Shown here piece after piece: positions 8,922 to 62,822 of a stretch of DNA of 64,000 bases; position 1 is the stretch's first letter; each line of letters opens with the position of its first letter. The notes under the pieces are model-generated. The model worked only from the letters and a program-made list of their open reading frames with translations. It was not told the origin of the DNA and made no database searches. A program made the translations under genes and the position numbers. Source of the stretch: a virus; IMG/VR virus record IMGVR_UViG_3300028840_003687; one strand, 5' to 3'.

Positions 8922-9237
8922 TGCAGGCTCCTGTCGTGTCGATGTATAGGGTAGCGTGTCCGCCTACGGTCACATCGTCTGTGTCCCACCGCTCGGTGCC
9001 CAGCGCCTGCTGGCCGTCGCTGCGGGACCCGTTGATTCCGATCTCCGCCCCGCTGATGCAGGGGTTGTGGTGGCATGCGACCTGAAGAACCGCTAGCGCT
9101 CCGAGGGTCATCCACGTCATCCAGGTGATGCGGTCTCCACCGAACATCCGATGCCCGGTCTCCGCAACGCATGCGATGGTCAGGACGAACGGCAGGCCGT
9201 AGATCACGACGCCCAGGAAGTGCAGTGTCGATTCCAT
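8908..9237 (-). CDS. small membrane/secreted protein
   Basis: MESTLHFLGVVIYGLPFVLTIACVA hydrophobic N-terminus plus a second hydrophobic segment; ATGA overlap with the primase stop. Confidence 0.45.
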   Translation of the reverse strand: MESTLHFLGVVIYGLPFVLTIACVAETGHRMFGGDRITWMTWMTLGALAVLQVACHHNPCISGAEIGINGSRSDGQQALGTERWDTDDVTVGGHATLYIDTTGACNAPQ

Positions 9238-11588
9238 CAGAAGATGTCCTCCTGCTCCGGGCCGGGAAGTTCGATCTCCTCTTCGGGCTCTTCCCCGACC
9301 CAATCACCCTGACCATAGACCTCGACCCACCTCTCGCGGCAATCCTCGAGGTCCATGAACTGGTAGACCTTCCGACGGCCCGTCGAGACCGACGAGTTGC
9401 CCTTCTTCACCGGAGCGACCTTGCTCAGGAAGCGACCCCAGTGAACGCGCGTCTTCGGGTTTCGGAAGCTCTTGCGCTTCGTGTACTCCAGGTAGTCCTG
9501 GTAGAGGGTGTCAGTCAGCACGACCTGCGGCCACGGCACGCTGCCAGGATCGTCGTCGAGCATGCGGCCCTCGACCAGCTTGTCGAACCACCACTGTTCC
9601 TCGGTGTCGTAGCTCTGCATCTGCTGCTCCTGCAGCGCCATCGTCGTCGGAACGTGGCGGACATCAAAGCCGGAAAGATCGTAGTTGAGCAGGTTGTAGA
9701 GAAACCCCTCTCGCCCTCCGTTGTCCATCTGCTGTTGAATCGCACCGAAGTACTCAGCGTCCCGGGCCCGTGCATCGCTCACGTCAAGAACGAGGAAGCG
9801 GCGCTCGCTCCGACTGTGGGCCGGAACGACCCAGTCATGGTTCGAGGCCATCATGAGGTGCAGGCAGTTAGTCGCGGTTTCGATGTCGACGCCCTTGGCC
9901 TCGATCTGCATCGTATCCTCGGTGACGATCATCTTCAGCACGCCTTCGTGCTTCTTGTCGCCGGCGTAGAAGGCCTCGTCCGCGAAGATGAAGACGCAGT
10001 CCCGGAGGTGGGCGTTGAAGTTCCCGACGAGCTGGCTGGAGTGTCCGACCTGCATGTAGTGTCGGCCCAGGAGGGCCCCGAGCTGCTTCGCGAGGAACGA
10101 CTTCCCCGTCCCCTGCTGGCCGCGCATCACGATTGCCGTCTGCCCAGGCTCGCCGGGATGCTGGATCATTCGGGCCATCCAGCCCATTACGTATTCGAAG
10201 TAGGTGTCCTTGCCTTGGCAGACGTTTTCGCGGATGTGCTCTTCGAGCTTGTCCCACCGCCCCGGGCGTGCTTCACAGGAGAAGCCTCTCCAGAGGTTGT
10301 ACGAGTCCGGCACTTCCTGGTTCGGAACGAAGATGACCCGCTTGAACTGTCGCCGGTCCGGATGCTTCAGCCACCAGTCGCCCAGGGGCATGTACTTCGG
10401 GTTCCCGTCCTTGTCGGACCCGACCTCCACCCGTCGGTTCATGTGCGCGTTCTTGAAGTCGCCGAAGCTCATTGACGAGAGGCGCGAGCGCCGGAGGATC
10501 GGATCGTCCAGCTCTTCGATCACGCGGCAGCGTCCCCCGAAGTTCTCGATCACCGAGTAGCGGTCATTCATCGCCGCCAGGTTCGGATCGATCGCGAATT
10601 CCTTCGCCTTCCCGATCTGGCGTTTCGCATAGCTTTCGACGTTCGCGCCCTTGTCGAGCACTGAGTCGCTGATGCCGAAGTCCGGGTCCGTGATCAGCGA
10701 GAAGATGACCTCGTCGGGCACGTTGCAGCGAACAAGGTTGCAGACGCAATCGAATAGCCAGCTCGATCGCGAGTCGTCTTCCTTGGGCGGTTCGTCGGGA
10801 TGCCGCCCCTGGACGATGATGACCTTCACACGGTCGGGCACGTCCCACTCGTCCAGCTCGTCCATCGTGGCGATGCGGGCAATGTTTCCGCTGATCTCGA
10901 CCGTCTGGGACGACGCTCCGAACAGCTCGTTCGTCTGCGTGGGCGCGGCCGGCGTGAACTGCGAGAGCGAGTAGATCCGGCTCTGGTCGAAGACCTCGAC
11001 CTTCGCCAGCTCCTCGCTCCGACCCTTCGCGCGCTTCTTCGCGTCGGGGACGTTGACGGTCCCTGGCAGCCGCATGATGCGATCGACGTTGTGGCAGTTG
11101 TCCGCGCCGAAGAGCAGCTCGAGCTGCAGGTTCCAGCGCTTCGCGGTCTCGGCCAGGCCGACGTCGCCGTTGATCTCGAACTCCTCATCGAGCCGCCAGA
11201 AGCCTTGGTAGCCGCCGCCCGAGAAGATGACCGCCGTGGGCTTCGGAACGCCGGCCGGCGGATCCAGCAGCTGGGTCAGGGCGCGCTCTCGCTCTGCTTG
11301 GAGATCCTGACCGTCACGCGGGTCGACGTCGACGTGCAGCCAGCGCATGCCCCGCATGTCCTCGCGGAGTGCCTTCTTGTCCATCGGTCCACGCGTCGGG
11401 TTGACGTGGAAGTAGATGTTGCGGGTGCCGTTGTACTTCTCGATCCACTCCGCGCATTCGGTGTCCGTCTCGGCCTCGAACGTCGCGGTGGTGATCGCCT
11501 TGCGATCCACGGCGATCGCAGTCAGCACCCAGAGCCCAGAGGGCTCGTACTGCTTCAGGAACTCGATTGCTGCCGGGGTATCGGTCAT
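9237..11588 (-). CDS. bifunctional primase-polymerase / superfamily-3 (D5/P4-type) replicative helicase
   Basis: 783 aa; N-terminal prim-pol-like region; C-terminal SF3 helicase with Walker A GQQGTGKS and Walker B IFADEA. Confidence 0.8.
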   Translation of the reverse strand: MTDTPAAIEFLKQYEPSGLWVLTAIAVDRKAITTATFEAETDTECAEWIEKYNGTRNIYFHVNPTRGPMDKKALREDMRGMRWLHVDVDPRDGQDLQAERERALTQLLDPPAGVPKPTAVIFSGGGYQGFWRLDEEFEINGDVGLAETAKRWNLQLELLFGADNCHNVDRIMRLPGTVNVPDAKKRAKGRSEELAKVEVFDQSRIYSLSQFTPAAPTQTNELFGASSQTVEISGNIARIATMDELDEWDVPDRVKVIIVQGRHPDEPPKEDDSRSSWLFDCVCNLVRCNVPDEVIFSLITDPDFGISDSVLDKGANVESYAKRQIGKAKEFAIDPNLAAMNDRYSVIENFGGRCRVIEELDDPILRRSRLSSMSFGDFKNAHMNRRVEVGSDKDGNPKYMPLGDWWLKHPDRRQFKRVIFVPNQEVPDSYNLWRGFSCEARPGRWDKLEEHIRENVCQGKDTYFEYVMGWMARMIQHPGEPGQTAIVMRGQQGTGKSFLAKQLGALLGRHYMQVGHSSQLVGNFNAHLRDCVFIFADEAFYAGDKKHEGVLKMIVTEDTMQIEAKGVDIETATNCLHLMMASNHDWVVPAHSRSERRFLVLDVSDARARDAEYFGAIQQQMDNGGREGFLYNLLNYDLSGFDVRHVPTTMALQEQQMQSYDTEEQWWFDKLVEGRMLDDDPGSVPWPQVVLTDTLYQDYLEYTKRKSFRNPKTRVHWGRFLSKVAPVKKGNSSVSTGRRKVYQFMDLEDCRERWVEVYGQGDWVGEEPEEEIELPGPEQEDIF

Positions 11589-46435: not shown

Positions 46436-47962
46436 TCAGCTCCGTACTTCGGCGGTGTTGGCCTTGTCGGTGACCGTGATTGTAGCGGATCCGGCCGTGA
46501 CGGTGGCGGAGGCCGCTCCTGCCGTGACGGAAGCCTCCGCGGCGGCAGCCGTGACGGTCACGTTCGGCGTGGTCGCAGTGACGGTCGCGTTCGCGGTGAC
46601 CGCGGTGACGATGAAGAGCGCCAGCCCGTCGGCGATCGCGTTTCCGCGGGGCTCAGCGAAGATGGTGGCCGTTCCACCCAGCTCCGAAGCGAGGTCAAGG
46701 ATCAACGACCCAGTCGCATCGAGCAGGGCATCGGCCGTGAGTTCGGTGGCCCCCAGGAGCGTGAGCACGCCGTCGGCGTCGAGAGCAGCCGCCGCGTCCA
46801 TCTCGGAAGCACCGGCGAGTTCGAGCTGCGGAGCTGCGTCGAGAGTCGCGTCCGCGGAGAGTTCGCTGTCCGCCTCGAACGTCAGTTCGCCTTCGGCGTC
46901 GACGGTCGCGTCCGCGGAGAGTTCGGAAGTGAGTTCGCCGGCGAGACTCGGGGTGGCGTCGAGGGTCGCGTCGGCTGCAAGCTCGGAATCGACGGAGATG
47001 GCGAGGGACGGAGCCGCGTCAACCGTGGCGTCGGCGGAAAGCTCGATCGCACCCGAGACCAGGATCTCGCTTTCAGCGTCGAGGGTCGCGTCAGCGGAGA
47101 GTTCGGAATCGACGGAGATGGCGAGGGACGGAGCGGCGTCGAGAGTCGCGTCCGCGGAGAGTTCGCTGTCCGCCTCGAACGTCAGTTCGCCTTCGGCGTC
47201 GAGGGTCGCATCACCCGACAGCTCTGCCGAGGCGTTGGCTCCCAGAGAAGGAGCCGCGTCGATGGTCGCGTCTCCGTCCAGCTCGGCTTCGGGGACCTCA
47301 TAGGAGATCTCCAGGATCGGGTTGAGGCTGGCTGCCTCCGCCGAGTTGATGTTCCACATCTGGCCGGCAGACGCGGATGGAACAGCCAGAATCGCCATCG
47401 GAACACCGCGTGCAGTGCGGTTAGTTTCGTTGTCGTTGAAGATGTTCTGGGCGTCGGTCAGGAACCCGGAATCAGTGGTGACCACATCGCCGGTGCCGGA
47501 CCCGGCGTCATTCCACTCCAGCCAATCCCCGGACGTAACTACCCCGTTCAGGAAGTTGGTGAAGAACCGAGCGGAGCCGCCTTCCCAGCCGGCGTCCGCG
47601 GCTCCCGTGCGGTTCGGGTACGGAAGAGACGCTGCGCTGGTTCCGTACTCACCCCATCCGAGATCGGACGCCTGCACGTTCCAGGTGCCATCCAGCTCCA
47701 GGAAGCCGACGCTGACGGTATGAGCCGCGGTTCCCGTCTTCGTGTTTACGTGGATGCGGAAGCTGACAGAAGTCAGTTCCGCTCCAAGCGGGATGTCCGG
47801 CTCGAAGATGAACCAGGTGGCCTGGTTCTGGAGGCTCTTCTGGACGCTGCCGATGTTATGCGTAGACGCCGACTGGGTGGTCGGGTTACCGGTGGGGCTG
47901 GCGTAGTTGGTGAAGAAGTCAGCTTGGTCGGTCGGAGTCGGGTTTACCGATACGGTAGGCAT
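46436..47962 (-). CDS. structural protein with ~8 tandem ~20-aa repeats (head fibre/decoration candidate)
   Basis: 508 aa; the C-terminal half is built of SELSADATLDAAPSLAISVD / ELTFEADSELSADATLDAEG-type repeats. Confidence 0.55.
   Translation of the reverse strand: MPTVSVNPTPTDQADFFTNYASPTGNPTTQSASTHNIGSVQKSLQNQATWFIFEPDIPLGAELTSVSFRIHVNTKTGTAAHTVSVGFLELDGTWNVQASDLGWGEYGTSAASLPYPNRTGAADAGWEGGSARFFTNFLNGVVTSGDWLEWNDAGSGTGDVVTTDSGFLTDAQNIFNDNETNRTARGVPMAILAVPSASAGQMWNINSAEAASLNPILEISYEVPEAELDGDATIDAAPSLGANASAELSGDATLDAEGELTFEADSELSADATLDAAPSLAISVDSELSADATLDAESEILVSGAIELSADATVDAAPSLAISVDSELAADATLDATPSLAGELTSELSADATVDAEGELTFEADSELSADATLDAAPQLELAGASEMDAAAALDADGVLTLLGATELTADALLDATGSLILDLASELGGTATIFAEPRGNAIADGLALFIVTAVTANATVTATTPNVTVTAAAAEASVTAGAASATVTAGSATITVTDKANTAEVRS
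46740..47250. repeat. nucleotide-level tandem/duplicated repeats inside the repeat-protein gene
   Basis: Near-identical blocks recur, e.g. GCGTCCGCGGAGAGTTCGCTGTCCGCCTCGAACGTCAGTTCGCCTTCGGCGTCGA at ~46850 and ~47150, and GAGTTCGGAATCGACGGAGATGGCGAGGGACGGAGC at ~46985 and ~47100. Confidence 0.6.
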
Positions 47963-52289: not shown

Positions 52290-52696
52290 CAGGGGAGCAC
52301 CTTGGGCAGGACCGAAACGCTCAGGAAGGCGAGAGCGTCGGCTTCGGGAACGGCGCCCTTCGGGTCGGAGCATATCACGTAGTCGAACCGCCGACCGCCC
52401 AGGGCGGAACCCCATGAGGCGTAGTGGATCGAGCCGCCCTCGTCGTTGTGGAGGGTCATGTAGTCTCGGCGCGCGCCCGTGATCCGCTGCGCGCGCTTGA
52501 GGTAGCGCTTCGCCAGCTCCATGGTGCTGGTGAGGACGAAAACGCGGGCCGCTTCGGAGACGTCGCCCCAGATGTGGGCTGGAAAGTCCGCGGAGCACCA
52601 CTCGGCGCGATCGGGATCGTGGATCGCGTAGAGGGAGCTGTTGCAGTGGACCGTGACGGAAGGGTCGAATTGAAAGGCGGTATCTGCGTAGGACAT
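52289..52696 (-). CDS. hypothetical protein (a terminase small-subunit role is possible)
   Basis: 135-aa ORF immediately upstream of TerL with stop/start overlap. Confidence 0.4.
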   Translation of the reverse strand: MSYADTAFQFDPSVTVHCNSSLYAIHDPDRAEWCSADFPAHIWGDVSEAARVFVLTSTMELAKRYLKRAQRITGARRDYMTLHNDEGGSIHYASWGSALGGRRFDYVICSDPKGAVPEADALAFLSVSVLPKVLP

Positions 52697-52980
52697 CAGG
52701 ACTGATCCCAGTGGTTGGGGGGCTTCACGACGGTGCGGACCCAGGCTTCGGACTTTCCGATTCGCTTTGCGATCGCGCGGGGGTGGAGTCCCTGCTCGAA
52801 GAGCCGTTTGGCACGGCGCGCTTTGCGCTGGGCGGAAGCTCGAGGTGGCTTCTCGATGTCGAAGGGGACGTTGGTGACAGGGCCAGCGGTGGACTGGCTC
52901 TTCTGCACGACGTTCGTCGCGAGGGAATCGAGGTCCGGGCAGAGCGGGTCGTCTACGATGATTACGGTGGGGGAATTCAT
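52696..52980 (-). CDS. HTH DNA-binding protein
   Basis: 94 aa; C-terminal helix-turn-helix LHPRAIAKRIGKSEAWVRTVV; first gene leftward of the repeat region. Confidence 0.45.
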   Translation of the reverse strand: MNSPTVIIVDDPLCPDLDSLATNVVQKSQSTAGPVTNVPFDIEKPPRASAQRKARRAKRLFEQGLHPRAIAKRIGKSEAWVRTVVKPPNHWDQS

Positions 52981-53039: not shown

Positions 53040-53790
53040 TTTGATTTTTGCTTATCGATTGCCAGGTCGCAAATGAGCAATATGGATGCAATTTGCCAGC
53101 AATTTGCGCATTGCCTGCTTCTTCGTTGCACATGAGTTGCGCATTCTGCACATGCCTTGCCTCCTACTTGCACATTGCTTGCTCATAAGCTGCTCATTTT
53201 GCGTATGACTTGCATATCAAACTCACATTTGTGATGCATACATGCACATGAGTTGCTCATTTTGCCTATAAGCTGCCCCCATACTGCGCACCCCTTGCAC
53301 ATGAGTTGCTCATTTTGCACATGACATGCACACCATCTGCCCCCTTCTGCCTATAAGCTGCCCCTCCCCTGCATCCGAGTTGCTCATTTTGCCTGTCCCA
53401 TGCACCCCCCTTGCACACGGGGTGCCTGTGGGCTGCGCATTCTGCACATGGGGTGCCTGCTGGATGCCCCCCTTCTGCACACCCCCTTCCTAAGATGCCC
53501 CCTTCCTGCACACCCCCTTCCTGTGGGCTGCGCTCGAGTTGCGCATTCTGCCGGTCCGCTGCCGGGAAGGTTCTGGCATTTGCTAGCAGGTGCGTGTTAG
53601 TTGCCGGTCCGCTTCTAGAACCTTCTCGCAGCGAGTGCGCAACTCGATCCGCCGCTGCACATTTCTTGCTAGCAGGTTCCGGCATCTGCGCATGCCAACT
53701 TTCGCGGCGGCACCCCGCTAGCGCCCCGATAGCACCCCGTGCGCAACTGCAAGGGGCCGGCAACCGATGCGCACCTGCTAGCACCTGCAC
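53040..53790. repeat. repeat-dense non-coding region (origin / pac / operator array candidate)
   Basis: >=4 copies of TGCACATGAGTTGCTCATTTTGC (contains the dyad ATGAG-TTG-CTCAT) and variants (GAGTTGCGCATTCTGC x3); CCTATAAGCTGCCCC x3; GCACACCCCCTTCC x3; GCTAGC-containing TGCTAGCAGG x3; no credible ORF (the 53266..53880 ORF is rejected). Confidence 0.7.
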
Positions 53791-53791
53791 G

Positions 53792-54412
53792 CTAGTTGCC
53801 TTCGCTCGAGACTTGCACATCGACTGCGCTCGAGATTCCTTCGTTTTGCAGGTCCTCTTCCGTAGGCACCAGACCGGCAAGCTCTGAGAGGACGATGCGC
53901 AACGCTCGCCGCCCTTCGGGGGAAAGCTTCTGCACGAGAGTTGCGTCTAGCGCGCCGACTCCCTGCTGCTTCTCTGCCGGCAGGTCGCCGATCACCCGAT
54001 CGGCACGATCTATGACTTTCGCCAGCAACCCATCGGCATATTGCGTGACTGTCCCCACGGGTTCGCCATCCCGGTTGAACCGATCAACTTGCACGCCTTC
54101 TACCGCTCGGCGGGTGGCTTCCCGCACCAAAGAATCACGATACCTGCACACTGCCTCCCGGACTGCTGCCGCGAATTCTGGCACCCTTGCCTGGTAGGTG
54201 CGTGCGACTTGCGTGCTGCACCCCGCGACATCGGCAGCGCGTGCGAGTCCGCCATGCGTTTCGACTTCCCGCAGGTACACCGCGCGAGCAGGCGCCGGGA
54301 ATGTGACCGGCATGTAACCCGCAGACGTGTCGCGGGCCCGCTCAATGACTTCTAAGGCCTCGATGGCCCGCTCCCGCTCCCGCTCCGATTTTACGATTTC
54401 ATCCTCGCTCAT
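53792..54412 (-). CDS. putative terminase small subunit / DNA-binding protein
   Basis: 206 aa; N-terminal HTH-like LREVETHGGLARAADVAGCSTQVARTY resembles the TerS N-terminal DNA-binding pattern; first gene of the leftward block. Confidence 0.4.
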   Translation of the reverse strand: MSEDEIVKSERERERAIEALEVIERARDTSAGYMPVTFPAPARAVYLREVETHGGLARAADVAGCSTQVARTYQARVPEFAAAVREAVCRYRDSLVREATRRAVEGVQVDRFNRDGEPVGTVTQYADGLLAKVIDRADRVIGDLPAEKQQGVGALDATLVQKLSPEGRRALRIVLSELAGLVPTEEDLQNEGISSAVDVQVSSEGN

Positions 54413-54479: not shown

Positions 54480-54570
54480 GTGCTGGTAATAGTTCACGTA
54501 AGTACCTGTTTTTATTATACTTTACTAGTAACACTAGTAACACTAGTAAATATACATATTAGACACGCAT
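54480..54570. repeat. AT-rich island with ACTAGTAAC tandem repeats at the divergence point
   Basis: TTTTTATTATACTTTACTAGTAACACTAGTAACACTAGTAAATATACATATTAG inside an otherwise GC-rich genome. Confidence 0.5.
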
Positions 54571-54814: not shown

Positions 54815-54888
54815 CCCCCTCAAGCTTTCGCGCCACCCACCGATAGATCAGTCACGGCCCACCGAACGGGCCGCAGGAGCAAACCAGA
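54815..54888 (+). promoter_or_regulatory. conserved promoter/leader cassette copy 1
   Basis: CCCTCAAGC-N15-CCGATAGAT...GGAGCAAACCAGA-ATG. Confidence 0.5.
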
Positions 54889-55053
54889 ATGAGCGAAACC
54901 ATGGTCCAACTCGTAACCGTCGACCCCACCGAACGCGTGGAGCGCGTCGTGCCCCTCGGGTTCGCCTATGCGCAACTCGGGTGCGGATACCAGCGGGTGA
55001 CGATTTCCGACCCCGAGACCGGCATCGTCATGCAGCAGGAAAGCAACTCATGA
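54889..55053 (+). CDS. small hypothetical protein
   Basis: 54 aa, preceded by the GGAGCAAACC leader; ATGA overlap with the next gene. Confidence 0.4.
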   Translation: MSETMVQLVTVDPTERVERVVPLGFAYAQLGCGYQRVTISDPETGIVMQQESNS

Positions 55054-55487
55054 GCAAGCGAATCCCGAACAACGCCCGCAGCCGAGTTGCCGCTTGGCTG
55101 CACGAAAACGAGCCCGTCCGCAATTTGCGCATCGAATGCGTCGAACATGCCACCCGCAGGGAAATCCCTGTTGCGGACGCGATGCGTGCTCTCGAACAGG
55201 CAAATCTCGCGCGCTTTATCCCGGGGGTGGGATGGGTGTCGAATTTCGTCACCGGCGACAAGTGCGCAGAACTCGCGCAACACGAGCGCAGCGGGAAGGG
55301 GTGGTTCGTCCGCTCGGAGCGCAAGCGCAAGGCACCGGCAACTCTCGAGCATCCCGACCGATGCGCAGATCCTGCGCAGGTGACGTGCAACTCGTGTGAG
55401 TCTTCGTGGTGCGAGCGCTGCGATCCGGCGCCCGGTCCGCTCTGCCACGTCTGCCACGGTCGCGGATACTCGACTGCGCAACTCTAG
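55050..55487 (+). CDS. hypothetical protein with C-terminal zinc-ribbon
   Basis: 145 aa from MSKRIP; C-terminus CNSCESSWCERCDPAPGPLCHVCHGRG. Confidence 0.5.
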   Translation: MSKRIPNNARSRVAAWLHENEPVRNLRIECVEHATRREIPVADAMRALEQANLARFIPGVGWVSNFVTGDKCAELAQHERSGKGWFVRSERKRKAPATLEHPDRCADPAQVTCNSCESSWCERCDPAPGPLCHVCHGRGYSTAQL

Positions 55488-55514
55488 CGCAACAAACAAA
55501 AATCGCGTTCGGCA

Positions 55515-55598
55515 GCGAAAAACCTCTAAGGTTATTCGGGGCCCGACCGATAGGTATATCATAAGGGGCAGCAAACCAGCCCCCAGGAGCAAACCAAA
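55515..55598 (+). promoter_or_regulatory. conserved promoter/leader cassette copy 2
   Basis: GAAAAACCTCTAAGG-N15-CCGATAGG-TATATCATAAGG...GGAGCAAACCAAA-ATG. Confidence 0.5.
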
Positions 55599-55804: not shown

Positions 55805-56518
55805 ATGCGATACCAACGCGAATTTACGTGGGGCACGGACGAAAGCACGGGCGAGGACGGATGGCTGCCCGCGTGGCTCGACGGCGTCGAGGACCCCTAT
55901 GCGTTTATCGGGGACGGAGTTGCGCACGACGCGCTAGAGCACGAGGCGCACGAATCCGACGGAGACCTCGAAAACGAGACCCGCGCGCTAGGTGCCGTCT
56001 ATTTCGTCCGCGGCGAATCGGGATGGTTCGATGCGCAGCGAAGTGGCAACCCCGACGTAGGTGAAAATCTCGCCTCGGATTTCATCGAACTATATCGAGC
56101 TTTTGCCTATGCGGGAGACTCGATCGGGGACGCGTGGCCGCTCGGGTCCGACCCGGACGCGCATGCGATGGCCGCGACGTTTCGCGATATCGTGCGCAAC
56201 GGGATCCGGCAGGCGATCGACGAGCATTCGACCGATTCGGATGAGCGGGACACCCTCGCAAGCTTCGCGCGTGGCCGCGAGTGGTTCGTGCAACTCATGT
56301 GCGAGGGATACGCAGCCGCGCATGAGCGCTTCAACGGCAACTCCAGTGCAGCGCGTGAGCTGTTCGAGCGCATCTCGTCTGCTAGCAGCGATGCCGCAAG
56401 CCATGCGCAGGACCACGGATACGCTCGTTTCCTAGTTGACATCGACACGGAAGCCGGCAAGTTTAGTGCAACGTGCGAGGTTTTCGAAAATCCCACGTAC
56501 GGCGACGATATGCGCTAA
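55805..56518 (+). CDS. highly acidic hypothetical protein
   Basis: 237 aa with many D/E; GGAGCAAACC leader. Confidence 0.55.
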   Translation: MRYQREFTWGTDESTGEDGWLPAWLDGVEDPYAFIGDGVAHDALEHEAHESDGDLENETRALGAVYFVRGESGWFDAQRSGNPDVGENLASDFIELYRAFAYAGDSIGDAWPLGSDPDAHAMAATFRDIVRNGIRQAIDEHSTDSDERDTLASFARGREWFVQLMCEGYAAAHERFNGNSSAARELFERISSASSDAASHAQDHGYARFLVDIDTEAGKFSATCEVFENPTYGDDMR

Positions 56519-56539
56519 AGCTGCACATCGGTCAGGAGA

Positions 56540-56581
56540 GCGCAGTCCGTAGGCAACTACAGGCTGCGCTTTTTTGTTTGT
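56540..56581 (+). terminator. rho-independent terminator
   Basis: GCGCAGTCCGTAG-GCAA-CTACAGGCTGCGC stem (GNRA-type GCAA loop) followed by TTTTTTGTTTG. Confidence 0.6.
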
Positions 56582-56589
56582 CCGTTTCG

Positions 56590-56875
56590 AATTTTGCTAT
56601 CAAGTTGCACAATCTCGAGTCAGCAGCCGGTGCGCAGTTTGAAAAATGCACTCAAGCTGCACATGCGCAACTCGCAAGCAACTATCAAAACTGCGAATTT
56701 TGCACTCAAGCTGCGCATCGGCAACTCATGTGCATCTCTCGAGCTTTCGAATTTTGCACTCAAGTTGCGCATCGCCCAACCGGCAACTCAGGTGCAATGT
56801 TCAGAATGCACTCAAGTTGCGCCTGGGCTGCACACGAACCATCACCTGAGTTGCACTCGAGACTCACGCCCGTAA
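56590..56875. repeat. array of five ~53-bp direct repeats (iteron-like)
   Basis: Units (A)TTTTGCACTCAAG(C/T)TGCGCATCG..GCAACTCA at ~56595, 56647, 56701, 56755, 56807; ORFs 56594..56875 and 56646..56849 are rejected as artefacts of the repeats. Confidence 0.65.
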
Positions 56876-57000
56876 ATGGCCCGTATCGCGATTTTTCGAG
56901 GGTACCCGTCGGATCATACCGGCGACCGTTGGCACGATTCTCCGGCGATCCTGCGGCGCCTAACGCCACATGCGCAACTAGCATGTAACTAATAAAATAA

Positions 57001-57054
57001 CGAAAAAACATCAAAAACCCCTAAAGTTATGGGGGCACTAACCGATAGGGTAGT
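57001..57054 (+). promoter_or_regulatory. conserved promoter/leader cassette copy 3 (short leader)
   Basis: CGAAAAAACATCAAAAACCCCTAAAG-N15-CCGATAGGGTAGT-ATG. Confidence 0.5.
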
Positions 57055-57303
57055 ATGACTAAAAAACGGTTTTCCGATATATGCGCGGCGGCTGGCGTTC
57101 GATGGTCGCACAATCCCGATCTAGATACGATCGACGTGGACCCGCCTAGCGGATACGTGATAGCGGACACGGGCCTACACTATCTGTCGCACTTCATGCG
57201 AGGCTGGACGCGCGCGGAAGCTTACCAGCACATCGCCGCCGACCTAGCCGGTGGAATCGAAAAGTGCGAGCAGGCGGAATGCGACTACTGCGAAAAAAGC
57301 TAG
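57055..57303 (+). CDS. hypothetical protein
   Basis: 82 aa, C-terminal CEQAECDYCE. Confidence 0.5.
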   Translation: MTKKRFSDICAAAGVRWSHNPDLDTIDVDPPSGYVIADTGLHYLSHFMRGWTRAEAYQHIAADLAGGIEKCEQAECDYCEKS

Positions 57304-57357
57304 TTGCCTGTCTTTTGCTATTCAGGTTTCGGACTACTCACCGATAAGAGATACATA

Positions 57358-57630
57358 ATGCAGAAACTCGAATCCCTTCTAATCGCGCTGCGCGAGTCGT
57401 CGCCCACGGGCCGCATCGCGGCGACCGTTTCGCCCGAAGTCGATCGGGTGACCTATCACGCGCTCACGGTATGCGAGCATTGCGGCGGAGAAATCGCCGT
57501 CGGTGACGGTTTCGCATGGCAGGAGTGGGGGTGGTACCGGGGAGACTATCGCCGCGCGGAAGCGTACGCGGACGCTACCCGATACGCGCATCATGCGCAG
57601 GAAATGTGCAAGCGATTTTCTTTCGAATAG
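57358..57630 (+). CDS. hypothetical protein
   Basis: 90 aa from MQKLESLL; CEHCGGE motif. Confidence 0.45.
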   Translation: MQKLESLLIALRESSPTGRIAATVSPEVDRVTYHALTVCEHCGGEIAVGDGFAWQEWGWYRGDYRRAEAYADATRYAHHAQEMCKRFSFE

Positions 57631-57632
57631 CG

Positions 57633-57699
57633 CGAAAAAACTCTCAAGCGCGGGCGCCGCGCGCCGATAAGTAGATCATAACAACGGGAGCAAACCCAA
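57633..57699 (+). promoter_or_regulatory. conserved promoter/leader cassette copy 4
   Basis: GCGAAAAAACTCTCAAGCG-N15-CCGATAAG-TAGATCATAACAACGGGAGCAAACCCA-ATG. Confidence 0.5.
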
Positions 57700-57803
57700 T
57701 GATTTTCGAGTCCGTTCTGTTCTTTTCCTACACTGTCGCCATTTGCATGGGACTTGCCGCTCTTCGATAGAGCGCACCTAACACGCAACAAAGGAGCAAA
57801 CCA

Positions 57804-58355: not shown

Positions 58356-58700
58356 CGCGCAGCACGATACTTACCGGCAAGTTGCCGGGTCCCTGCCGGG
58401 GTATGGTTTGCTCCCCCCGGTGGGGATTTTTTCGTTCGGCGACCGGCAACTAATGTGCAAGTCTCGAGCTTCCACTTTTGCCTATAGATTGCGCTCAAGT
58501 GTGCCGACCGTTCTGCCGATGTACACAGTACACCGCCCCTGCGCGTGAACAAGCAACTCTCGAGCAACTCATGCGCAACGCTCTGTGCGCCCCTCTAAGC
58601 GCCGATTTTTCGGCCGGTACCCTAATACCGGGGGAGGGCCGATCGTTTGTTAGGCGGGATCCTGCGGCGCCGTTTTCGTCTGGCGCCCATAGCGCGCGCT

Positions 58701-58800
58701 AGAAAAATAACGAAAAAACATCGGTAACCCGCTAAAGTATTCCGGCGACCCACCGATAAGAGACTCATAACGCGGGCCGATCCCGCCGGAGCAAACCGCC
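58701..58800 (+). promoter_or_regulatory. conserved promoter/leader cassette copy 5
   Basis: AAAAATAACGAAAAAACATCGGTAACCCGCTAAAG-N15-CCGATAAG-AGACTCATAACG...GGAGCAAACCGCC-ATG; the upstream ~100 bp is also duplicated at 56870-57000. Confidence 0.5.
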
Positions 58801-59004
58801 ATGACGGCCCGAGAATACATCGACGCAATCACCCGCGAGGAAAACCGGGGCGCAGAGCATGCGCAGAACGGACTTGCGTGCTGCCCGCCTACGATCGACG
58901 TGAACGGCTACGACCAGGCAAGTTACTCGCAATGGATGTGCATCCGATCCGCATACTATCGCGGATTTGGGACGAGCGTGCGAGAGCAGGAAGGCGGCAA
59001 CTAA
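58801..59004 (+). CDS. small hypothetical protein
   Basis: 67 aa, ends ...EGGN with a GGCAACTAATG stop-start junction. Confidence 0.45.
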   Translation: MTAREYIDAITREENRGAEHAQNGLACCPPTIDVNGYDQASYSQWMCIRSAYYRGFGTSVREQEGGN

Positions 59005-61607: not shown

Positions 61608-61671
61608 AAAAACCTCTAAAGTCTGACACCCGAGCGGCCGATAGGCCACACATAACAAACGGGAGCAAACC
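61603..61671 (+). promoter_or_regulatory. conserved promoter/leader cassette copy 8
   Basis: TCTGAAAAAACCTCTAAAG-N16-CCGATAGG-CCACACATAACAAACGGGAGCAAACC-ATG. Confidence 0.5.
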
Positions 61672-61854
61672 ATGACCGAACGAGAACGAGCAATCATCCG
61701 ATGGGCGCTGCTGAATTTCAGCGGGATGGCCTTCGAGCGATTCGCTTTCGCGAACGAGGGCGATGTCAACCACTGGAAGGCCACGCAGGGGTCCGAGCTG
61801 CCGACCGAGGTCGAGGTGCTCAAACTGGCCGATTCGATGGAGGACCCGTCATGA
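61672..61854 (+). CDS. small hypothetical protein
   Basis: 60 aa, ATGA overlap with the methyltransferase start. Confidence 0.4.
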   Translation: MTERERAIIRWALLNFSGMAFERFAFANEGDVNHWKATQGSELPTEVEVLKLADSMEDPS

Positions 61855-62822
61855 GCAACTTCGACGCAATCGACCTTTTCGCGGGAGCCGGAGGCTTCAG
61901 CACCGGCGCGAACCTCGCGGGAGTCCGCACCCTCTGGGCCGCGAACCACTGGCCCGAAGCGGTGGAGTGTCACGCGGCCAACCACCCCCACACGGCCCAC
62001 GCGTGCCAGGATCTCATGGAGGCAGATTGGACGCAGGTTCCGGCGGCCCGGATGCTGCTCGCCTCGCCCGCATGCCAGGGACACAGCCAGTGCGGCCAGC
62101 CCGCGCGCAAGGGGACCGGCGGCAACTCCCGCCCGGATGCCCACGCGGCCCGGGTGAAGTCGCAGCGCGACCGCAACACGGCCTGGGCGGTGCTCGCCGC
62201 GGCGGATACCGTGCGGCCCGAGTTCCTCGCGATCGAGAACGTCCCGGACTTCGCGCGCTGGGAAGCCTTCGACGCATGGCTGGGCGTCCTGCACGCCTAC
62301 GGCTACCAGACCCGGGTGCAGACCCTCCGAGCGACCGACTACGGCGGCGCCCAGGAGCGCGACCGGTGCGTCATCACGGCCCGCCTGGGCCACGCGGCCC
62401 CCGAGCTGGCGCCGACCTGGGGCGGCCCGGCCGTGACCATCGGCGAGTGCCTGGAGGCCGACACGGCCCCCCACCACCGGTGGAAGCCGATCGACTCGAA
62501 GAGCGAGCGCATGCGGGTGCGCGTCGCGAAGGCCCAGCGCGAGGCCGGATCCCAGTGCCTCTGGGCGAACGTCTCGGAGTCCTCCGGGCGGCCCCTGGAC
62601 GGCCATTTCCCGACGTCCACGACGAAGAGCATCGGCCAGTGGTACGTGATCGACGGCGACCGCATGCGGACCCTCAGCGCCCGCGAGCTGGCCCGGTCTA
62701 TGTCCTTCCCGGATACCTACATCCTCCCCCGGCAGAAGGGCCTCGCCGGGAAGATGATCGGCAACGCGATCGACGTGCGCATGGCCCAGGGCATCGTCGA
62801 GCAGATTATTCTCGCCGCCTGA
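61851..62822 (+). CDS. DNA (cytosine-5) methyltransferase
   Basis: Motif I DLFAGAGGF, PC motif PCQGHS (catalytic Cys), ENV motif LAIENVPDF; start at MSNFDAID (internal to ORF 61701..62822). Confidence 0.85.
   Translation: MSNFDAIDLFAGAGGFSTGANLAGVRTLWAANHWPEAVECHAANHPHTAHACQDLMEADWTQVPAARMLLASPACQGHSQCGQPARKGTGGNSRPDAHAARVKSQRDRNTAWAVLAAADTVRPEFLAIENVPDFARWEAFDAWLGVLHAYGYQTRVQTLRATDYGGAQERDRCVITARLGHAAPELAPTWGGPAVTIGECLEADTAPHHRWKPIDSKSERMRVRVAKAQREAGSQCLWANVSESSGRPLDGHFPTSTTKSIGQWYVIDGDRMRTLSARELARSMSFPDTYILPRQKGLAGKMIGNAIDVRMAQGIVEQIILAA

Follow-up and report, generated by a model that had tools for sequence, protein, structure and literature searches.

The 64,000-nucleotide stretch of viral DNA in IMG/VR record IMGVR_UViG_3300028840_003687 (here, the window) carries, at positions 56540–56875, an intrinsic terminator followed by five direct repeats of a short box at a period of about 53 bp. 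We find that this is a real, conserved cis element with kin among phage operator arrays and mobile regulatory cassettes, and that the features associated with it are unusual: a helically phased repeat region (the hub) beside a gene for a small-terminase-like (TerS-like) protein, and early-gene promoters of the sigma28 type. The anatomy of the array, its conservation and phasing, the family of boxes to which it belongs and its promoter match are all direct observations. We put a probability of about 55% on the five repeats being a one-face, cooperative binding array for the hub-binding protein, which would regulate the portable cassette in which they lie. Binding of a protein to the box is suggested by the conservation of the box and by its geometry.

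A phased array in a non-coding gap

The array lies in the stretch 56519–57054, which has low G+C content (47–57%) and no codon-position GC bias and is therefore a 536-bp non-coding gap. About 20 nt 3′ of the TAA stop (56516–56518) of the preceding gene, which encodes an acidic protein of 237 amino acids, stands a hairpin with a single C/A mismatch (stem, 56539–56570) followed by TTTTTT (56571–56576). It folds at −28.6 kcal/mol (z = −5.35), and none of 200 shuffled sequences was equally stable. A first-pass annotation of this DNA had proposed that a GNRA-capped hairpin and T-tract terminate the acidic-protein gene, and these values, with the T6 run, confirm it. A consensus terminator scanner did not call the hairpin, probably because of the single stem mismatch. 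The terminator is kept in homologous positions despite sequence change: a hairpin with T6–7 opens all five copies of the cassette described below, orthologous and paralogous, and in L047, a relative, the stem sequence is different. (Related phages were reached through homologues of the acidic protein and of the TerS-like protein.)

Downstream of the terminator, a gap-free repeat search found a 27-nt conserved segment five times, starting at 56586, 56638, 56692, 56746 and 56798 (spacing 52, 54, 54 and 52 bp); a weaker sixth copy at 56502 overlaps the stop codon. The 17-nt core of the segment, TGCACTCAAGYTGCRCA, starts at 56595 (as a variant), 56647, 56701, 56755 and 56807. A few bases after most of these forward boxes comes the same box inverted (GCAACTC...GCA), a pairing retained in the window, in L047 and in a second relative, L062.

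56539–56576, + strand: intrinsic terminator (imperfect 13–14-bp stem, GCAA loop, T6) that ends the acidic-protein gene 55805–56518
56595–56611, + strand: forward box 1, variant TGCTATCAAGTTGCACA
56647–56663, + strand: forward box 2, TGCACTCAAGCTGCACA
56667–56680, − strand: inverted partner of box 2, 3 nt after it, GCAACTCGCAAGCA on the + strand
56701–56717, + strand: forward box 3, TGCACTCAAGCTGCGCA
56721–56734, − strand: inverted partner of box 3; its + strand sequence, GCAACTCATGTGCA, is also the hub core
56755–56771, + strand: forward box 4, TGCACTCAAGTTGCGCA, a 17-mer also present unchanged in the hub of L063, a relative
56783–56796, − strand: inverted partner of box 4, GCAACTCAGGTGCA on the + strand
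56807–56823, + strand: forward box 5, TGCACTCAAGTTGCGCC

The five direct repeats that had been noticed on first reading are thus present in a non-coding gap at the period given. The description of their unit held for the core, which is found in all five; its other half, 'GCAACTCA', occurs in three of the five and is the same box inverted. The tandem-repeat check proposed at that stage gave a divided result, as Tandem Repeats Finder made no call, because only about half of each unit is conserved, and the array was found by gap-free repeat and motif searches.

The box is conserved between phages. Across the nine copies in the window and L047, 13 of the 17 positions are identical throughout (the Y and R sites are two of the variable ones), and L062 adds three more such boxes. 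Around them, the flanking gene of L047 (the P0003 phage) matches that of the window at 76% of DNA positions and 73% of amino acids, the terminator segment at 60%, and the spacers run from 32 to 65 nt. By this comparison the box is under selection. Boxes follow one another at 52, 54, 54 and 52 bp in the window, at 54 and 52 bp in L062 and at 84, 85 and 54 bp in L047, or about 5, 5 and 8 helical turns. Spacers vary in sequence and length, yet each box-to-box distance is close to a whole number of turns, which would place a bound protein on one face of the DNA, able to bind cooperatively and to wrap or loop it.

A hairpin within the box (AGTTGC...GCAACT) was considered and dropped, because the C/T variation of the forward box has no compensating change in the inverted partner.

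We find it scarcely credible that the array instead encodes a product, be it a translated open reading frame (ORF; 56594–56875 or 56473–56988), a small array of CRISPR type or a structured non-coding RNA. Two frames, one of 93 and one of 171 codons, do stay open across the array, but they show no signal in third-position G+C content (GC3), the similarity to L047 and L062 extends over several frames on both strands, and L047 has stops in all + frames. For ORF 56594–56875 in particular, which had been raised as a possible real gene, the codon positions do not differ in GC bias, and the orthologous arrays keep no reading frame in common. The resemblance of a 27-nt repeat and 26-nt spacer to CRISPR is superficial: the repeats are 70–78% alike over 27 nt, the 'spacers' share the inverted box and are conserved between phages, and Rfam holds no family for the array region at E values up to 1, CRISPR direct-repeat families included. 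That absence of an Rfam family also tells against a structured RNA, as do the uncompensated C/T change and the lack of a conserved fold when RNAalifold was applied to the 3′ part of five cassette copies.

A portable terminator–promoter cassette

In five of five copies the array stands between a terminator and a sigma28-type promoter, within a cassette of 450–540 bp that holds one to five boxes. Its order is terminator, boxes (most with an inverted partner), a conserved spacer of about 100 bp, an A-rich block, a sigma28/FliA-type promoter and a small gene.

56841–56880, + strand: terminal variant box and conserved block, CACCTGAGTTGCACTCGAGACTCACGCCCGTAAATGGCC, the array end in IGR-A-type cassette copies and in the second cassette of L062
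56929–56961, + strand: conserved spacer block, TTGGCACGATTCTCCGGCGATCCTGCGGCGCC
56970–56988, − strand: degenerate inverted box near the promoter, reading ATGCGCAACTAGCATGTAA on the + strand, with its centre about 77 nt before the predicted start
56992–57012, + strand: A-rich block, TAAAATAACGAAAAAACATCA, of which 18–19 nt are identical in the paralogous cassette, in an UP-element-like place (about −62 to −45)
57021–57048, + strand: sigma28/FliA-type promoter (−35 CTAAAG, 15 nt, −10 CCGATAG), with the predicted start at or next to ATG 57055
57055–57303, + strand: small accessory gene (82 amino acids) served by the cassette; its L062 homologue lies elsewhere, without a cassette
58356–58800, + strand: paralogous cassette with one unit, followed by gene 58801–59004
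58385–58432 (approximate), within the paralogous cassette: hairpin and T6
58446–58459, within the paralogous cassette: inverted box
58474–58505, within the paralogous cassette: forward TGC run
58705–58722, within the paralogous cassette: A-rich block
58732–58759, within the paralogous cassette: sigma28-type promoter

The gap 56519–57054 is paralogous to the early gap 58356–58800 (blastn, 56719–57047 against 58444–58758, E = 3e-13). Both contain, in the same order, a hairpin with a T-run, one or more box units, the blocks CGATTTTTCG and GATCCTGCGGCGCC, an identical AAAATAACGAAAAAACATC, CTAAAG-N15-CCGATAR and a small gene. L047 has its cassette at the equivalent place, with four boxes and the same 3′ blocks; in L062 (the P0011 phage) a cassette with three boxes follows a RadC-like gene instead, and a second one is of the 58.4-kb type. 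At this locus the cassette is not found in L001/L013, L051, L053 or L056, nor is a box array found elsewhere in the available parts of those genomes. It is missing from the closest relative, and its flanking genes differ between phages. The cassette, found in varied gene contexts and missing from some relatives, is therefore accessory and portable, with a box number that ranges from 1 to 5.

This distribution bears on a role in replication or partition. The array could be an iteron set or a cis replication region like crr of P4, at which the A/T-rich block unwinds and the DUF5906 primase-helicase (9237–11588) binds. Direct repeats do lie beside a stretch of at least 75% A+T, of which 52.6–61 kb has just three, a second repeat region (the hub) stands 3 kb away, as ori and crr do in P4, and the phage encodes a DUF5906/VapE-like helicase of 783 amino acids, which we take to be similar in size to P4 alpha. 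We nevertheless consider this reading very unlikely. The array is accessory (absent in L013, L051, L053 and L056), its copy number varies and a paralogous copy is present; there are no DnaA boxes near it and no adjacent initiator or Rep gene; and the A-rich block (56976–57020) keeps a constant distance from the −35/−10 pair, as an UP element would. An earlier suggestion of a second iteron set is unsupported on the same grounds, given that the array is always found between terminator and sigma28-type promoter. So is that of a partition centromere, for an accessory array of variable copy number in a terminator–promoter cassette. Pfam or PHROG scans, which covered the large ORFs and those nearby but not every ORF, recognised no Rep, partition NTPase or ParB/ParR-like gene.

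The mobility of the cassette also raises the possibility that the repeats are a recombination substrate only, derived from the hub and kept for gene-cassette shuffling like the PeSL motifs of T4, with no binding or regulatory role. The cassette marks insertion/deletion boundaries between relatives and flanks small variable ORFs, two paralogous copies sit in one genome, contigs of the P0003 phage break just after it, and the T4 PeSL elements offer a precedent (PMC2839356, PMC4122927). Conservation, however, is focused on the 17-bp box and not on the whole unit, and the helical register is kept even where the unit length changes. As a complete account we judge it quite unlikely; it is compatible with, and not exclusive of, a regulatory binding array.

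For the P0003 phage, independent sequencing runs gave two contigs with an identical end point, just 3′ of the cassette (L047 at 11287 and L048 at 4271; ...ggtagggcaaa), and a third contig ends inside it. The shared end may be an assembly break at a repeat or a strain-variable junction; a physical DNA end is less likely.

The hub is built from the same type of box

The first-pass annotation also noted that the core of the array recurs in opposite orientation at 53 kb, and this is confirmed by exact matches to GCAACTCATGTGCA at 56721 (+ strand) and at 53127, 53243 and 53296 (− strand). At up to two mismatches GCAACTCATGTGCA has 34 matches in the window, against 1.2 expected, all but two of them within 53–60.6 kb.

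53050–53790, + strand: hub, with principal box TGCACATGAGTTGC(G/T)CA, between the terS-like gene and the late genes
53792–54412, − strand: TerS-like helix-turn-helix (HTH) protein of 206 amino acids, the leading candidate for the box binder (phrog_4044 'terminase small subunit', E = 2e-14)

The + strand of the hub holds 48 TGC triplets (counted in 53050–53560), whose distances repeat as 11-11-9-11-11 = 53 bp, or five turns of 10.6 bp. Its principal box, TGCACATGAGTTGC(G/T)CA, is of the same type and on the same strand as the array box, of which GCAACTCATGTGCA is the inverted form, and the two regions share the 53-bp super-period. The general pattern TGCRC-N5-YTGC-N-CA occurs 21 times in the window (0.13 expected), always within 53.1–59.7 kb. 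Every relative with sequence at that place keeps the hub as a feature, down to 55% TerS identity, while the unit sequences diverge: L051 has TGCAC-N5-CTGCGCA at 53-bp spacing and the L063 hub contains the exact array 17-mer. It always adjoins the 3′ end of a terS-like gene of 202–227 amino acids, and stays beside terS even in L062, in which 3.6 kb of genes separate the hub from terL. The hub is probably a packaging recognition region, a late control region, or both. Of the three functions first proposed for the array, the last is supported, in which it is bound by whatever factor recognises the 53-kb repeats: box type, strand and super-period are common to both.

A shared box could also make the array an auxiliary TerS-loading site, similar to a packaging recognition (pac) site, that would join the hub in initiating packaging, perhaps by DNA looping of the kind seen with pacL and pacR of SPP1, and would have no part in transcription. 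In addition to the box type shared with the hub beside terS, this has the attraction that a TerS ring is believed to carry about 100 bp of DNA around it, one HTH to each turn, and that the SPP1 pac has separated sets of direct repeats (PMC4737164); the 53-bp units of the array are half of a 106-bp wrap. We regard such a secondary pac as unlikely. Close relatives that retain the hub lack the array; the array has a fixed place between terminator and promoter in a cassette that moves between gene contexts; and single boxes stand at fixed distances from other promoters. It lies 2.2 kb from terS across the early control region, whereas the hub adjoins terS in all relatives, and, unlike the hub, it has a forward TGC pair in only two of every five helical turns. 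The break points of the assemblies give no guide to where packaging would start.

Several observations concern the hub and its box elsewhere. At the hub end nearest terL (53040–53075, − strand), a box in the late direction is followed after 15 nt by (T/C)CGATA(A/G)G; the same arrangement is found in L012 (about 1067–1105) and at the hub end of L014. The element resembles a sigma28 −10, with the box standing where the −35 would be, and it is degenerate in L011, L013 and L015. From its sequence, the pair may be an activator-dependent late promoter. A more distant phage, L021 (large terminase 54% identical), has 10-bp TCA(G/C)C units directly upstream of its TerS-like gene (2550–2800), an architecture like that of the hub with a different repeated word. 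Five generic boxes, mostly on the − strand, occur at 55260–55495 within the coding region of an early gene for a Cys-rich protein of 145 amino acids (55050–55487); the last overlaps the stop of that gene and is the promoter-proximal box of the next sigma28-type promoter.

Boxes accompany sigma28-type promoters

The sigma28/FliA consensus has −35 TCTAAAG and −10 GCCGATAA with 14 nt between them, that is, TAAAG-N15-CCGATAA (PMC12784957). The cassette sequence 57021–57048, CCCTAAAG-N14-ACCGATAG, agrees with this consensus. The window contains six sites of this type (0.03 expected). Each lies on the + strand directly before an early gene, and AAAAC precedes most of them.

54819–54846, 55525–55553, 57021–57048, 57643–57670, 58732–58759 and 61616–61644, + strand: sigma28-type promoters, CT(A/C)AAG-N15-CCGATAR

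L062 has eight, all in the early-gene direction. Only one sigma70-like site was seen in 52.6–61 kb, outside the cassette. Among the window proteins scanned for families, no phage sigma gene was recognised, and the literature that we searched contains no description of phages with early promoters of the sigma28/FliA type.

Among 17 sigma28-type promoters that we collected, 7 have a box ending 25–34 nt upstream of the −35, with its centre at about −68 to −77; we estimate that about 0.004 boxes would fall at those positions by chance. The box is therefore a promoter-associated element as well as a unit of the hub and of the array. Since the same box type recurs in the hub, in the arrays and about 70 bp upstream of sigma28-type promoters, one common protein probably binds it, and that protein would link the three kinds of site.

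On another reading no separate binder exists: each box is itself a tandem promoter, or else an orphan −35 for sigma28 (CTCAAG) that serves to recruit or titrate sigma28 RNA polymerase. The CTCAAG centre is indeed the −35 variant of the sigma28-type promoters at 54819 and 57643, and the boxes are oriented as the downstream genes are. A CCGATAA-like −10 at 15 nt downstream, however, follows none of 12 boxes from three phages, and hub boxes lack the CTCAAG centre, which makes this highly improbable. Sigma54 promoters have the −24/−12 consensus TGGCAC-N5-TTGC. We rejected a sigma54 promoter here: spacing and TTGC fit, but every copy in the same 12 boxes has TTGCAC without GG.

Further features of the early promoters were noted. 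A weaker sigma28-type site lies at about 57341. The −10 elements of two such promoters (57042–57057 and 57341–57360) end only 6–10 nt before the ATGs at 57055 and 57358, so these mRNAs are predicted to be leaderless or nearly so; other early genes have GGAGCAAAC Shine–Dalgarno leaders. A small ORF at 57700–57771, missed by gene finders, has its own sigma28-type promoter and Shine–Dalgarno sequence and encodes a hydrophobic peptide of 23 amino acids, MIFESVLFFSYTVAICMGLAALR, conserved in L001 as MIYEAALLISYVSAICLGLGALRS. Between terS and the first early gene, 54480–54560 is an A+T-rich divergent control region with a sigma70-like TTCACG-17-TATACT (+ strand) and a perfect TATAAT (− strand). Within it, at 54524–54549, three tandem ACTAGTAAC units form overlapping GTTACTAGTAAC palindromes, which are probably operators of a separate repressor.

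A candidate binder and a model

Every phage with boxes needs to encode the binder or have access to it, and TerS and TerL are the only neighbourhood proteins common to the three array-bearing phages; the TerS-like protein (53792–54412), beside whose gene the hub stays in every relative, is most likely the binder. An AlphaFold model, confident at residues 1–125, shows an HTH bundle, a long helix and a β-hairpin. In a TerS ring the HTH motifs face the DNA at intervals of about one turn (PMC4737164), a spacing that suits direct repeats at 10.6 bp, and the winged-HTH proteins Cox, Apl and BldC polymerise head to tail with one molecule per turn and act at several loci (PMC11963761). Two other proteins were rejected as binders. 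The HTH protein at 52696–52980, to which the first-pass annotation had looked, is absent from L047 and L062, which have the identical box array, and from L051, which has the hub. The 54-amino-acid first early protein, a lead from co-occurrence, is absent from the array-bearing L062.

In the model that we favour, the terminator would close the upstream early operon and the boxes would form the upstream regulatory part of the cassette. The bound protein would set the timing of the cassette promoter, or the amount of transcription that passes the terminator; its effect would be activation, repression or insulation.

Several points weigh against this model. We infer the identity and action of the binding protein throughout. 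The best-probability Foldseek matches of the TerS-like model are the Sf6 and SF6 small terminases, at non-significant E values of 0.3 or worse, and the protein has no match among Pfam and PDB sequences. Its recognition helix shows no co-variation with the hub word down to 55% TerS identity, over which the GCA phasing persists, a comparison that is uninformative about the binder. The close relatives L013 and L051 do without the cassette, which makes the array accessory. One promoter-proximal box, at 57596, falls within a coding region and may in part be a coding coincidence. Finally, the CTCAAG centre is invariant in the array, whereas the hub accepts any five bases there; for this reason the array box may be under a second constraint, CTCAAG being a −35 variant of some sigma28-type promoters here.

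A more ambitious form of the model, tentative and on balance doubtful, gives the TerS-like protein two roles: it would wrap a nucleosome-like pac hub of about 500 bp and about 45 units, and would also bind the arrays and promoter boxes that control the early and middle promoters of the sigma28 type.

Comparison with known systems

In plasmid partition, ParR of plasmid R1 binds cooperatively to parC, ten 11-bp direct iterons that flank a promoter, and KorB of RK2 has sites dispersed over the replicon, regulates promoters at a distance and also serves partition. Unlike these, the phage arrays are accessory, the genome looks lytic, and no ParB/ParR-like gene or partition NTPase appeared among the genes screened.

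The PeSL elements of T4-type phages are reportedly motifs of about 50 bp with a sigma70 early promoter. Like the cassette, they are short non-coding modules of terminator stem-loop and promoter, several per genome, beside small variable ORFs at insertion, deletion and replacement boundaries between close relatives (PMC2839356, PMC4122927). The cassette is likewise composite, multi-copy (two in the window, two in L062) and placed at the boundaries of variable small ORFs. It shows no PeSL homology with a sigma70 early promoter and differs in being 450–540 bp long, with a sigma28-type promoter and one to five phased boxes of the kind that also builds the hub beside terS.

The closest counterparts of the array itself are the sites of P2 Cox, 186 Apl, BldC and RdfS, which lie on one face at helical-turn spacing; the proteins form cooperative head-to-tail filaments that bend or compact DNA, and one protein serves several distant site clusters, with regulatory consequences (PMC11963761). 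Proteins of the Cox/Apl type are small winged-HTH recombination-directionality or switch proteins with 2–7 sites, whereas the hub has about 45 and the candidate is a TerS-like protein of 206 amino acids. Unlike those systems, no integrase was found among the genes screened.

For the hub, the nearest parallels are SPP1/SF6 G1P and Sf6 gp1, in which a ring sets HTH motifs about one turn apart and about 100 bp of bendable DNA is thought to be wrapped; their pac region comprises sets of direct repeats and overlaps with promoters (PMC4737164), and here the hub adjoins terS. Known pac sites, located within terS or upstream of it, span 100–300 bp and are weakly repetitive; reports describe none that has about 45 phased units or satellite arrays in promoter cassettes of the early region. 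Late activators of the RinA super-family attach to a control region next to the terminase genes and turn on the operon for packaging and late functions. RinA-type systems belong to temperate phages of Gram-positive bacteria and use a single promoter-proximal site, and the parts of the reports consulted describe no phased repeat arrays (PMC3152322, PMC3753634).

Genomic context

The window represents most of the genome of a tailed phage of about 69.6 kb (64% G+C), for which three independent assemblies measure 69,536, 69,649 and 69,670 bp. The − strand between about 8 and 52.6 kb encodes terminase, portal, tape measure protein, ribonucleotide reductase, DNA polymerase A and the DUF5906 helicase, and a block of small genes lies on the + strand from 54.9 kb onward. 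A DNA similarity search gave no match to cultured phages, and the large terminase is at most 51% identical to that of any cultured phage; judged by these comparisons, this is a lineage without a close cultured relative. Searches with the 237-amino-acid acidic protein, by tblastn and in a metagenome scan, gave no match, and the exact box pattern and the A-rich block, sought in viral contigs, returned unrelated chance matches only. A scan of genomes yielded no hint of the host.

L050 is from an unrelated T7-like phage with its own RNA polymerase and integrase genes, and its early region includes, at 10001–10702, a 50%-identical homologue of the acidic early protein, which suggests a widely exchanged host-takeover protein. 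The phage of the window also encodes a C-5 cytosine DNA methyltransferase (61701–62822), and the boxes are rich in GCGC, TGCA and TGCGCA palindromes; for these reasons recognition of the boxes could be modulated by methylation. Tandem repeats of 60 and 120 bp (2–4.5 copies, 66–77% matches) at 46894–47224 fall inside a − strand ORF of the structural-gene region (46436–47962, 508 amino acids, without a family match), which is probably a repeat-containing virion protein.

Implications

Little is understood so far of how small terminases recognise phage DNA: repeats in the known pac sites are weak, and DNA-binding domains in isolation bind with almost no specificity (PMC4737164). This phage family offers an unusually clear substrate, with a hub that presents one recognition triplet per helical turn over about 500 bp and satellite arrays in which a 17-bp box is letter-perfect. 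Control of promoters by the same protein, if it occurs, would constitute a new link between packaging and transcription; were the dual role of the TerS-like protein true, a single ring-forming protein would couple genome packaging to gene expression, in a family that borrows the host flagellar sigma factor for its early genes. The FliA-type promoters before early genes suggest that the phage times its programme by the motility state of the host, of which the literature searched gave no account. The cassette takes the idea of a mobile regulatory cassette beyond T4-type phages.

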